Of a stretch of DNA of 64,000 bases, positions 3,475-46,940 are shown one piece after another. The notes below the pieces were generated by a model. The model was not told where the DNA came from and did not search any database. It saw only the letters and a program-made list of their open reading frames with translations. The DNA comes from Candidatus Woesearchaeota archaeon (lineage in GTDB: Archaea; Nanobdellota; Nanobdellia; Woesearchaeales; JAHWIC01): positions 67,347-131,346 of the forward strand of contig JAHWIC010000001.1 of the NCBI GenBank assembly GCA_019322805.1, given 5' to 3'. Each line of letters begins with the position of its first letter. Within the stretch, counting starts at the first letter, position 1. The position numbers and the translations under genes are program-made.

Positions 3475-3711
3475 ATGCCAACTGTAAAAGTGTACAGCAC
3501 TCCCGCCTGTCCATGGTGCCATAAAGCAAAGGATTTCTTAAAGCAGAATAAGATTGATTTTGAGGATTTTGATGTTTCTGCAAACGAAGGTGCAAGAAAA
3601 GAGATGATGGATAAATCAGGACAAATGGGTGTTCCTGTGATTGATATTGAAGGCAAAATCATTGTTGGGTTTGACCAGGAAGCTATAAAGAAAGCACTTA
3701 AATTAAAATGA
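3475..3711 (+). CDS. Glutaredoxin-like small redox protein (CPWC active site)
   Basis: 78 aa. MPTVKVYSTPACPWCHKAKDFL has the thioredoxin/glutaredoxin-fold CxxC motif. Confidence 0.75.
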   Translation: MPTVKVYSTPACPWCHKAKDFLKQNKIDFEDFDVSANEGARKEMMDKSGQMGVPVIDIEGKIIVGFDQEAIKKALKLK

Positions 3712-4556
3712 GTAAACTGGCAGGCGAGTTAGTTGAATTAATAAAACAAACATCAACAAGCTTGCCATCTGATGTTACTAAGTCTATAAGGTCTGCTAAA
3801 AATAAAGAGAAAAAGGGTTCTATTCCATCCTACATTCTGGACACGATTATAAAGAATATCAACCTGGCAAAGAAAGAATCGTTGCCAATATGCCAGGATA
3901 CTGGAACCCTTAATTTTTATGTTTATTACAACAAAAAGCATGACCAAAAGAAGATAAGGGATTCAATAATAAAAGCAGTTAAGCTCGCAACAAAAAAATA
4001 TTACCTAAGGCCAAATGCTGTTAATTCAATAACTAGCCATAATTCAGGCAATAATATTGGAATAAATATGCCTTCTATCAAGTTTGATGAATGGGATAAG
4101 AGCTATTTAAGGATTGATTTAATGCTTAAGGGTGGTGGTTCTGAGAATGTAAGCGCACAATACAAGCTGCCTGACACCAGGCTAAAAGCAAGCCGCGACT
4201 TTGATGGAATTAAGAAATGTGTTGTCGATGCTGTAAAAAGTGCTGGTGGAAAAGGTTGTGCTCCTGGTATAATAGGTATCTGCATTGGTGGTGACAGGGC
4301 TTATGGTTACGAGCATGCTAAGAAACAGTTATTTAGAAAACTGAATGATAAAAACAAGAATCCTAAACTGGCAAAGCTGGAAAAAGAACTCAGTAATGGA
4401 TTAAACAAACTAAATATTGGTCCTATGGGTCTTGGTGGAAAAACAACTGTATTAGGTGTAAAGATAGGCTCTTTGCATAGACATCCTGCTTGCTTTTTTG
4501 TTTCAATCGCTTATATGTGCTGGGCTTGTAGAAGGAGAAGTTTAATAATTAAGTAA
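3708..4556 (+). CDS. Fe-S hydro-lyase (class I fumarate hydratase / L(+)-tartrate dehydratase) alpha subunit
   Basis: 282 aa. The ICQDTGT motif and overall length are typical of FumA/TtdA alpha subunits. Confidence 0.8.
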   Translation: MSKLAGELVELIKQTSTSLPSDVTKSIRSAKNKEKKGSIPSYILDTIIKNINLAKKESLPICQDTGTLNFYVYYNKKHDQKKIRDSIIKAVKLATKKYYLRPNAVNSITSHNSGNNIGINMPSIKFDEWDKSYLRIDLMLKGGGSENVSAQYKLPDTRLKASRDFDGIKKCVVDAVKSAGGKGCAPGIIGICIGGDRAYGYEHAKKQLFRKLNDKNKNPKLAKLEKELSNGLNKLNIGPMGLGGKTTVLGVKIGSLHRHPACFFVSIAYMCWACRRRSLIIK

Positions 4557-40430: not shown

Positions 40431-40522
40431 AGCCCCGAGGGAGAGTTGCACTCCCGACCTTCGCTTTTCCTTTAATATAAATCAATACGAGAGCGACGCA
40501 CTAGCTACTGTGCTACCGGGGC
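40431..40522 (-). tRNA. tRNA-Thr (anticodon CGU) with a roughly 19-nt intron at canonical position 37/38
   Basis: Manual fold on the minus strand. The acceptor stem is GCCCCGG/TCGGGGC, the D-arm is GCAC-AGTAGCTA-GTGC, the anticodon stem is TCGCT/AGCGA with loop CTCGTA|intron|A, and the T-stem is GGGAG/CTCCC. The T-loop TGCAACT is atypical. Confidence 0.55.
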
Positions 40523-45345: not shown

Positions 45346-45813
45346 ATGCAGTTCAGAAAAGCCGCTTCAAAAGACGCAAAAGGAATTGCTAATGTTCTTG
45401 TTCATAGTTATAATATTAAAGATATAAAAGAGGGAGTAGCAGCTTTTAAGGAAGAGGTTGCAAAGAAATACAATTATATTCTTGCCGTTGATAAAGGCAA
45501 GGTGGTTGGCTTAACAACATGGCAGGTTCATGGTTTGCCAAAACACCAGCTTTGTGAGCTTGATAGAATAGCTGTTCTTCCAGAATATAGAGGAAAAGGA
45601 GTTTCAAAAAAGCTGTTTGCTGCTTTAGTTAAGGCTGCTAAAGCGGAATACAAGAAACATGGATCAAAGCTTAGAAAGTTATACTTACTGACCCATGCCT
45701 CAAACATAAGAGCTCATAAGTTCTATGAAAAACTAGGATTTAAGCACGAAACTACTTTAAAAGGTCATTATTACAAAAAAGAAGATGAGTGGGTTTATTC
45801 TATGTTTTTTTAG
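45346..45813 (+). CDS. GNAT family N-acetyltransferase
   Basis: 155 aa. The acetyl-CoA-binding motif is RGKGVSKKLFAALVKAA. Confidence 0.7.
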   Translation: MQFRKAASKDAKGIANVLVHSYNIKDIKEGVAAFKEEVAKKYNYILAVDKGKVVGLTTWQVHGLPKHQLCELDRIAVLPEYRGKGVSKKLFAALVKAAKAEYKKHGSKLRKLYLLTHASNIRAHKFYEKLGFKHETTLKGHYYKKEDEWVYSMFF

Positions 45814-46612
45814 CCTGGCCAAATTCGCCAATCTTCCTCACAAAACTCAAGAAACCAGTGTGGCCTATGCCGCGAGTCTGCGGCCTTACCTTTCTGCCAT
45901 CAATTTCCCAGTTGCGCTTTATGATTTCCATTGTTCTTTCATGGACAAGATTATTGAATTTGTTTACTTCATTTACAAAGTCACTTGCTTGTGTGATTGA
46001 AGGACTGTAGGAAACAATAAAACCACCAATCTTTAATGCTTTTTCTGCAGGAATAATTGCATTCCATGGCGCAGGCAGGTCAAGTGTTACTAAATCAACA
46101 TCTTTTTCATCAATTCCTTTGTTAACATCTTTCTTTTTTATCTTAAGATTCTTTAAATCAAGGAAATCCTTGTTTTTCTTAGCAATCTTAAAGAAATCAT
46201 CCCTTATCTCATAGGTTGTTACTTCTTTGCAAAAATAAGCTAGATAACAAGCCAAAGCTCCCGAGCCAGCGCCAGCATCTACAATATGGCTGTTCTTGTT
46301 CACACCAGTATAAGAAAGAATAACACCAATATCCTTTATAGATATTATCTGTGCTTCACGCTCTATTCTTTTGTAATCATCTAAAAAGCTAGTTGTAAAT
46401 ATTGAGAATTTCTTCTTTGTGTTTGTCTCAACTATTGAGCCGTCTTTTTTCTTAAGCTCTTTTTTTGCTATAACTCCATCTGCGCAGTGGAAATCCTTAT
46501 TTAGGTCGGAAACAAAATAAGCCCTAGCTTTATCTACTAGAACTGTTTTGCCAATGTCTTTGACAAATTCCTTTCTTTCTTTTTTTATTAGCAATTTTCT
46601 TGTTGGTTTCAT
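45800..46612 (-). CDS. trmI: tRNA (adenine-N1)-methyltransferase TrmI/Gcd14-like
   Basis: 270 aa. The SAM motif VDAGAGSGALACYLAY and a Gcd14-like N-terminal domain are present. Confidence 0.65.
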   Translation of the reverse strand: MKPTRKLLIKKERKEFVKDIGKTVLVDKARAYFVSDLNKDFHCADGVIAKKELKKKDGSIVETNTKKKFSIFTTSFLDDYKRIEREAQIISIKDIGVILSYTGVNKNSHIVDAGAGSGALACYLAYFCKEVTTYEIRDDFFKIAKKNKDFLDLKNLKIKKKDVNKGIDEKDVDLVTLDLPAPWNAIIPAEKALKIGGFIVSYSPSITQASDFVNEVNKFNNLVHERTMEIIKRNWEIDGRKVRPQTRGIGHTGFLSFVRKIGEFGQAKKT

Positions 46613-46635
46613 CTTTGCATCTCCTGAATTTTGGA

Positions 46636-46775
46636 TGGGCCTGACGAGACTTTCGTGCCATAATTGCTCCGCAATTAACGGCGTTCGAACTCGCGATCTA
46701 CAGCTTAGAAGGCTGTCGCCTTATTTGCCTGAGCTAGCGAAGGCCCGCTTGCTCACCAGGCTAGGCTACAGGCCC
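46636..46775 (-). tRNA. Candidate tRNA-Arg (anticodon UCU) interrupted by two non-canonical introns (about 31 nt in the D-loop and about 34 nt in the T-loop near position 59/60)
   Basis: Manual fold on the minus strand. The acceptor stem is GGGCCTG/CAGGCCC, the D-stem is GCCT/AGGC, the anticodon stem is ACAGC/GCTGT with loop CTTCTAA, and the T-stem is GCGAG/CTCGT with loop TTCGAA. The spliced product is a canonical 75-nt cloverleaf. Confidence 0.5.
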
Positions 46776-46814
46776 TTAAGTAGTAGAGAAGAAAAAGCTC
46801 ATTTATAAATATTG

Positions 46815-46940
46815 TTAATTAGCGCCCCACTCTTCAGAGTGTTGAGTGCATTTCTTCTTGTTTTCCCAGTAAACCCAGCATTCTCTGCCGAATTTTTCCC
46901 ATTTAGCGCATCCTTCACAGCATTTAGGTGTGTCTGCCAT
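46815..46940 (-). CDS. Small Cys-rich protein (41 aa; MADTPKCCEGCAKWEKFGRECWVYWENKKKCTQHSEEWGAN), not in the ORF track
   Basis: The ORF ends 5 nt upstream of the top6A start, and the protein has 5 Cys. Confidence 0.35.
   Translation of the reverse strand: MADTPKCCEGCAKWEKFGRECWVYWENKKKCTQHSEEWGAN

Follow-up and report, generated by a model that had tools for sequence, protein, structure and literature searches.

The window, by which we mean the whole 64,000-nt stretch of DNA that was analysed, has a G+C content of 36.8% and encodes topoisomerase VI A (Topo VI-A) and B, a RIO kinase, a KH-domain protein, fibrillarin and Nop5, among others. On its minus strand, at 46636..46775, lies a 140-nt segment closed by a perfect 7-bp acceptor stem followed by an A, as the original prediction for this DNA had described. 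From its sequence, its fold and spliced alignment this segment is the whole coding region of a pre-tRNA-Arg(UCU), running from G1 to the discriminator A73, and the minus strand from 46775 to 46636 reads GGGCCTGTAGCCTAGCCTGG-tgagcaagcgggccttcgctagctcaggcaa-ATAAGGCGACAGCCTTCTAAGCTGTAGATCGCGAGTTCGAA-cgccgttaattgcggagcaattatggcacgaaag-TCTCGTCAGGCCCA. Once a 31-nt and a 34-nt segment are excised, what is left is a canonical 75-nt tRNA-Arg(UCU).

Gene structure

The gene comprises three exons and two introns, all on the minus strand. Exon 1 (46756..46775; 20 nt, GGGCCTGTAGCCTAGCCTGG), delimited by spliced alignment and by the register of the bulge-helix-bulge (BHB) motif, carries the 5' strand of the acceptor stem, U8, A9, the 5' strand of the D-stem and the D-loop as far as G18 G19. 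Intron 1 (46725..46755; 31 nt, TGAGCAAGCGGGCCTTCGCTAGCTCAGGCAA) then interrupts the D-loop between Sprinzl positions 19 and 20. Exon 2 (46684..46724; 41 nt, ATAAGGCGACAGCCTTCTAAGCTGTAGATCGCGAGTTCGAA), recognised by a partial match to the Rfam tRNA model (27.4 bits) and by orthologue alignment, contains A20, the 3' strand of the D-stem, the anticodon arm, the variable loop, the 5' strand of the T-stem and T-loop positions 54-59. Its anticodon TCT (46707..46709; UCU, positions 34-36), identified from the sequence and by ARAGORN, has U33 and A37 on either side. Intron 2 (46650..46683; 34 nt, CGCCGTTAATTGCGGAGCAATTATGGCACGAAAG) lies in the T-loop, at Sprinzl 59/60, and like intron 1 is defined by spliced alignment, fold and BHB register. 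Exon 3 (46636..46649; 14 nt, TCTCGTCAGGCCCA), placed by sequence and spliced alignment, supplies U60, the 3' strands of the T-stem and acceptor stem, and A73. Both intron positions were verified by blastn with the intron sequences.

The acceptor stem GGGCCTG/CAGGCCC pairs at 7/7 positions. The D-stem (GCCT/AGGC), the anticodon stem (ACAGC/GCTGT, with loop CTTCTAA) and the T-stem (GCGAG/CTCGT, with loop TTCGAAT), which the original prediction had also listed, are each present in the sequence. The spliced 75-nt product has A20, U33, the anticodon UCU, A37, the T-loop UUCGAAU and A73, its mature D-loop being AGCCUGGAUA (= AGCCTGGATA) with A20 and the conserved GGAUA. The conserved tRNA nucleotides U8, A14, G18 G19, U33, G53 U54 U55 C56, A58 and C61 are all found in it. 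No CCA is encoded; TCC directly follows the discriminator.

Promoter, neighbouring genes and codon demand

An archaeal TATA box, TTTATAAA, is recognisable from its sequence at 46802..46809 on the minus strand, -34..-27 from G1, which is the usual archaeal promoter distance. Wherever the sequence of an orthologue extends at least 35 nt upstream, it too has a TATA-like hexamer, beginning somewhere from -30 to -40 and for the most part from -30 to -37. Between this promoter and Topo VI-A is a minus-strand open reading frame (46815-46940) for a Cys-rich protein of 41 residues, MADTPKCCEGCAKWEKFGRECWVYWENKKKCTQHSEEWGAN, with no Pfam match. L001 has a small open reading frame of this kind at the corresponding position, as L048, L050 and L034 apparently do too (partial sequence; CCxGC...W...CW.YWE.KK.C..HSE), and it probably encodes a conserved small metal-binding protein. 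On the plus strand, an open reading frame at 46548..46808 (86 aa, TTG start) was rejected as spurious because it overlaps the tRNA gene.

Downstream, a gene for a tRNA methyltransferase of the GCD14/TrmI family (PF08704, identified by Pfam) occupies 45800-46612 on the minus strand; its start lies 23 nt beyond the tRNA, and a GGAG stands 8 nt ahead of the ATG. The tRNA gene of the window lacks an oligo-T terminator and, since just those 23 nt, with no T-run in them, separate it from the methyltransferase gene, co-transcription of the two is possible. The nearest relative, L004, has the same order, with the tRNA followed by 23 nt including GGAG and then a GCD14/TrmI-family gene. The GCD14/TrmI family makes m1A58, and its expected target, T-loop position 58, adjoins the 59/60 intron. 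In most orthologues a T-run or another tRNA gene comes next, 3' of tRNA-Arg. The neighbouring tRNA gene (GCGGAGGTGCCCAAGCGGCTAAGG...) lies a few nucleotides 3' of tRNA-Arg in L037, L048, L021, L007, L078 and others; that of L037, at 3515-3587, scores 59.1 bits with Rfam, and that of L078 is itself seemingly interrupted at two places. In the window this slot is taken by the TrmI-family gene.

Among 727 arginine codons in 53 open reading frames of the window, AGA accounts for 50% and AGG for 35% (85% together), implying that a tRNA with the anticodon UCU is in high demand. Since AGA is the commonest arginine codon, tRNA-Arg(UCU) is probably essential.

Precursor fold and splice sites

The unconstrained minimum-free-energy fold of the 140-mer is a cloverleaf with two intron hairpins that extend the D-loop and the T-loop. 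Its energy is -60 kcal/mol, compared with -46.4 +/- 4.0 kcal/mol for shuffled sequences (z = -3.44), and 0/200 shuffles are as stable. In the archaeal BHB motif (hBHBh', with hBH and HBh' as its relaxed forms) a 4-bp helix separates two bulges of 3 nt that lie on opposite strands, and each bulge is cut 2 nt in. A 4-bp central helix is found at both junctions, where the original prediction had proposed looking for BHB or relaxed motifs, and the TTCG/CGAA helix that it had noticed beside intron 2 is the central BHB helix of that intron.

In intron 1 the central helix (H) pairs exon GCCU (nt 15-17a) with intron AGGC, 4/4. The 5' bulge, GG↓U (the arrow marking the cut), lies between H and a 4-bp helix h', GAGC/GCUC, beyond which the strands pair again as AGCG/CGCU. 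On the 3' side the cut, AA↓A, falls either in a 5x1 internal loop beside the D-stem or in a 3-nt bulge closed by two A-U pairs. With (H, h', h) = (4, 4, 2) the intron is thus of the HBh' type, relaxed at its 3' site. In intron 2 the central helix pairs exon UUCG (54-57) with intron CGAA, again 4/4; the 3' bulge, AG↓U, is stacked directly on the 5-bp T-stem. Opposite the 5' bulge, AA↓C, stands a single unpaired A, ahead of a hairpin of 10-11 bp. Here (H, h', h) = (4, 0, 5), giving the hBH type, relaxed at the 5' site. The strict 3-4-3 motif is therefore departed from at one site in each intron, 3' of intron 1 and 5' of intron 2. This combination of one strict and one relaxed site per intron points to a broad-specificity endonuclease that tolerates both HBh' and hBH substrates. 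A Pfam search found no splicing endonuclease (EndA) or RtcB among the 53 window open reading frames of at least 150 aa, so that the enzyme and its specificity are taken here from the literature.

The same geometry extends across the orthologues. Splice positions were set by homology to intronless genes; where several placements gave an identical spliced product, the one with the strongest central helix was chosen, at the price of a slight bias. We then took the exon tetranucleotide that ends 2 nt ahead of each 5' cut and compared it with the intron tetranucleotide placed likewise with respect to the 3' cut. The central helix in this register is complete (4/4) in 36 of 51 introns and 3/4 in 14 more, so that the register is kept in 50/51. 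When the 3' partner was slid by 1 to 4 nt, at most two introns reached 4/4, and shuffled introns gave a mean of 1.2 and a maximum of 4.

Other kinds of intron were also considered. Self-splicing group I or group II introns were rejected: the introns are 31 and 34 nt long, as against a ribozyme core of several hundred nucleotides, and Rfam gave no group I or group II match at E <= 10, where the tRNA and two chance hits were all that appeared. A C/D-box sRNA within the introns was likewise rejected, since by eye neither intron was seen to combine a C box (RUGAUGA) with a D box (CUGA).

The boundaries of intron 1 need particular comment. The original prediction had given two introns of about 31 and 34 nt; both lengths stand, as do the boundaries of intron 2, but those of intron 1 were 3 nt off. 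The cut had been placed after the D-loop, and both orthologue alignment and BHB register put the true site 3 nt further 5'. With the cut originally proposed, exon 1 of the same gene would end ...GGUGA and exon 2 would start AGGC, giving a D-loop AGCCUGGUGA (= AGCCTGGTGA) and a mature tRNA that reads ...CCUGGUGAAGGC... and not, as with the corrected cut, ...CCUGGAUAAGGC.... The 75-mer cloverleaf of the original prediction is called tRNA-Arg(tct) by ARAGORN, as is the corrected 75-mer. We nevertheless consider that splice highly unlikely. GGATA stands at this place in the D-loop in 33/33 spliced orthologues, the four intronless genes among them, and in the intronless L070, L065 and L037 the junction of exons 1 and 2 is unbroken, reading ...AGYCTGG↓ATAAGG.... 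Because the orthologues read GGATA in the D-loop, intron 1 is tgagc...ggcaa (46755..46725) and not the segment 3 nt downstream. Spliced alignment by dynamic programming also places the gap at 19/20, and the GG↓U...AA↓A cut is the only one that falls 2 nt beyond the helix GCCU/AGGC, like the cuts of the other 50 introns. The earlier cut would, moreover, put U in place of A20, and A20 is a major identity element for arginyl-tRNA synthetase.

Orthologues and covariation

The closest relatives of the Topo VI-A protein, with 74-94% identity, come from metagenome-assembled genomes labelled Candidatus Woesearchaeota, Nanoarchaeia or Nanoarchaeota. Searches by blastn with the middle exon found an orthologous tRNA gene downstream of Topo VI-A in some 35-40 of 80 Topo VI-A loci. 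A generic 75-nt tRNA-Arg(UCU) was aligned with each region by dynamic programming that allowed gaps of free length; in the window this spliced alignment opened a 31-nt gap at Sprinzl 19/20 and one of 34 nt at 59/60. Six loci were left out of the automated statistics, four as mis-parsed (L011, L069, L024 and L013) and two because the contig or the extracted region stopped short within them (L034 and L050). The four mis-parsed genes were re-parsed by hand for the covariation analysis, L013 (76 nt) then being dropped from the alignment.

Among 30 cleanly parsed genes (29 orthologues and that of the window), four have no intron (L070, L065, L037 and L054), ten have one, ten have two and six have three. 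The introns occupy the sites 15/16, 19/20, 28/29, 37/38 and 59/60, together with a single 20a/21 intron in L009. The 59/60 site is filled in about 20 loci (the window and about 19 others) and the 19/20 site in 13, namely the window and 12 others with introns of 20-92 nt, one of the 12 being L001, a suspected chimera. Intron lengths range from 14 to 92 nt across the orthologues, and the intron sequences are unrelated apart from their BHB ends, whereas the exons are conserved. In the nearest relative, L004 (94% Topo VI-A identity), the introns are at the same two sites as in the window. L004 keeps the hairpin of intron 2, one G-C pair of the window being C-G there as judged by eye, and its T-stem differs from that of the window at several positions with pairing retained.

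We suggest that the gene is one snapshot of a fast, ongoing gain and loss of BHB introns in Woesearchaeales, with 0-3 introns at five main sites, a proposal to which we give even odds. The long (85-92 nt) 19/20 introns of L001 (~427-516), L078 (~4093-4185) and L026 share an internal GACTCCTAG...GGAGTC element, and in the D-loop intron of L001 the beginning of exon 2 is, in addition, partly repeated (ATAGGCGAC). Such long introns may represent a nested or compound intron, or the remnant of a duplication.

The stems covary. In an alignment of 33 spliced sequences (A1), 99.9% of 693 stem cells are paired and 13 of the 21 pairs are changed on both sides. None of 500 shuffles reached the observed values, and slid controls were 27-49% paired. 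The two halves of the acceptor stem, 126 nt apart in the gene of the window, covary as GGGCCUG/CAGGCCC, GGACCCG/CGGGUCC and GGGUGUG/CACACCC, implying that the separated pieces act as one RNA. The covariation indicates purifying selection on the spliced product.

These comparisons bear on three other explanations of the locus. The first is that it is a decaying or disabled pseudogene with two insertions, with decoding left to another copy elsewhere in the genome. The 64-kb window is all of the genome that was seen, so that a second copy is possible, and standard callers do not recognise the gene. On the other hand, the exons are intact with every stem pair kept, the insertions are exactly in BHB register, the promoter is conserved and the stems covary across the orthologues. 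The two-intron layout is shared with L004, whose T-stem differs and yet pairs, and AGA and AGG make up 85% of the arginine codons. We therefore regard a pseudogene as unlikely.

An assembly artefact, in which parts of tRNA genes from different strains were joined into a metagenomic chimera, is still more remote. Chimeras at this conserved gene do occur, as L001 appears to illustrate: this contig is 99.4% identical to the window over 1432 nt from exon 2 onwards and is unrelated upstream. In the window, by contrast, the acceptor halves match at 7/7 bp, the layout is the same as in the independent genome L004, and the succession Topo VI-A, small open reading frame, tRNA and TrmI is that of its relatives. 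In L001 itself (1-640; JGI 3300027901, Ga0209427_10157493), which carries a 90-nt D-loop intron, two positions of the 5' exon, GCGCCCG..., fail to pair with the 3' half of the acceptor stem. L001 was probably formed by the chimeric joining of metagenomic sequences at the conserved exon, a real recombinant being less likely.

Finally, a chance cloverleaf-like sequence or a different non-coding RNA has in its favour the sub-threshold Rfam score of the unspliced sequence and nothing else. The original prediction had named a match to another known non-coding RNA as a possible refutation, and there is none, the best alternative Rfam families having E = 2.7 and E = 6.6. This explanation is made scarcely credible by the conservation of the orthologues, by the covariation and by the 69-73 bits that intronless orthologues score as tRNAs.

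We conclude, with a probability of roughly 0.9, that the minus strand from 46775 to 46636 is a functional tRNA-Arg(UCU) gene belonging to a member of the Woesearchaeota (DPANN), and that two non-canonical BHB introns split it. The reading first put forward, of a tRNA-Arg(UCU) with one intron in the D-loop and one in the T-loop, is thus borne out by orthologues with and without introns, by covariation, by the BHB motifs at both junctions and by the TATA box. What the analysis establishes is how the gene is built, where its splice sites lie (by homology), the geometry of the BHB motifs, the covariation and the presence of a promoter motif.

Detection by tRNA search programs

It had been anticipated that standard callers would easily miss this gene, and they do. 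ARAGORN finds no tRNA in the 64-kb window; run without introns, in canonical-intron mode or in a permissive low-score mode, it misses the gene each time. The permissive mode makes extra calls, taken to be spurious, of which one is within the Topo VI-A open reading frame. At gathering thresholds Rfam gives no match at the gene; in E-value mode its tRNA family (RF00005) scores the unspliced gene at 27.4 bits, below the gathering score of 29, and covers the middle exon alone. Three intronless orthologues that were scanned score 68.7-72.8 bits against the same gathering score; intronless orthologues differ from the spliced window tRNA at about 8-14 of 75 positions. The two-intron gene of L004 is missed by Rfam, like that of the window. 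In the set of 30 parsed genes (29 orthologous loci among L004-L083, and the window), the intron mode of ARAGORN calls Arg(tct) in 4/4 intronless genes and in 7/10 with one intron. It recognises 0/16 of those with two or three introns, some being miscalled as Pro, Pyl or Ile. Counts of tRNA genes from such callers will therefore be too low for these genomes.

A permissive Rfam scan of the window detects one other tRNA-like locus, at 40431-40522 on the minus strand, which is not an arginine tRNA. It is a second interrupted tRNA, scoring 48.1 bits with the Rfam tRNA model in E-value mode and having a 19-nt insert in the anticodon loop; the gathering-mode Rfam run and the default ARAGORN search returned nothing there. 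Our best reading is a tRNA-Thr(CGU) with a 37/38 intron. Ser(cga), as called by ARAGORN, does not fit the 5-nt variable loop. The T-loop, UGCAACU, has G at position 55, where U is near-universal, and the BHB central helix is just 2/4. No orthologue of this tRNA was found in the Topo VI-A loci compared.

Discussion

How might such a precursor be matured? For the transcription, cleavage and ligation of this gene, and for the type of its endonuclease, we infer the following scheme. Transcription would start some 25-30 nt downstream of the TATA box, possibly reading through into the GCD14/TrmI-family gene, and the precursor would fold into a cloverleaf core with two protruding hairpins. In each hairpin four exon and four intron nucleotides would form the 4-bp helix, setting the splice sites 2 nt into the bulges, at GG↓U and AA↓A for the 19/20 intron and at AA↓C and AG↓U for the 59/60 intron. 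The archaeal splicing endonuclease EndA would cut these four sites, and an RtcB-type ligase would join exons 1, 2 and 3 (20, 41 and 14 nt). The ends would be trimmed by RNase P and RNase Z and, because no CCA is encoded, a CCA-adding enzyme would be expected to supply it. The mature tRNA would then decode AGA, the commonest arginine codon.

Multi-intron tRNAs in DPANN archaea, Woesearchaeota included, are already known (Kaneta et al. 2018, PMC5829648; Fujishima et al. 2011, PMC3239211). Several DPANN lineages have an α4-type EndA with an L3 loop, distinct from the ε2 type (PMC5829648). An L3-loop EndA occurs in diverse DPANN lineages, Woesearchaeota among them, and in such lineages tRNA genes are more often disrupted, in some cases by multiple introns (Kaneta et al. 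2018, PMC5829648). The incomplete tRNA sets of DPANN genomes point to undetected disrupted genes (PMC5829648), and the gene described here is one of this kind. That survey included one Woesearchaeota genome (Ca. Woesearchaeota archaeon RBG_13_36_6) and used tRNAscan-SE 2.0 (PMC5829648), whereas here one orthologous gene is followed through about 35 genomes. In the papers on archaeal tRNA introns that were consulted we did not find described either the comparative picture of 0-3 introns at five main sites of one orthologous gene in Woesearchaeales or the D-loop 19/20 site. Both are extensions and not surprises, and they leave current understanding unchanged while adding a well-documented case. 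There is also a practical consequence. Since ARAGORN and the Rfam gathering threshold both miss this gene, annotations, completeness estimates and codon-capacity estimates for DPANN genomes will under-count tRNAs unless multiple introns are allowed.

In Thermoproteales and some other archaea, tRNA genes have up to three introns at non-canonical sites that include 59/60 (PMC4090602, PMC4033280). The resemblance is close, in that the Thermoproteales (Pyrobaculum, Thermofilum, Caldivirga; Sugahara et al. 2007/2008) likewise have multiple BHB introns with relaxed hBH/HBh' sites and a presence that varies between related genomes (PMC4090602, PMC4033280). There are differences, however. The Thermoproteales are hyperthermophilic crenarchaea with an (αβ)2 EndA, whereas the present gene comes from a mesophilic member of the DPANN with AT-rich DNA. 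The positions given in PMC4090602, in a list that ends 'etc.' and whose numbering conventions differ, do not include the D-loop site 19/20. Intron transposition, described for Thermoproteales, has left no sign here, since a search of the window and 83 loci found no intron copies elsewhere beyond the identical contigs L001-L003.

A two-intron tRNA had been taken at the outset as a clue to lineage, and the window does come from a member of the Woesearchaeota, a DPANN archaeon. Another parallel is ARMAN-2 (Ca. Micrarchaeum acidiphilum), also of the DPANN, which has a 59/60 hBH intron like intron 2 and a tRNA-Pro(GGG) with two introns (PMC3239211), although it belongs to a phylum other than Woesearchaeota. 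Its pre-tRNA-Cys(GCA) with the 59/60 hBH intron is cleaved in vitro by its ε2 EndA (Fujishima et al. 2011, PMC3239211). The α4 architecture has long been taken to cut strict BHB motifs only. If the endonuclease acting on the present gene is of the α4 type with an L3 loop, its HBh' and hBH substrates would test whether it is the loop or the subunit architecture that sets the breadth of specificity. The orthologue series provides natural substrates in which strict and relaxed sites stand side by side, and it can be used to study both the origin of broad specificity in DPANN endonucleases and the speed of tRNA intron turnover.
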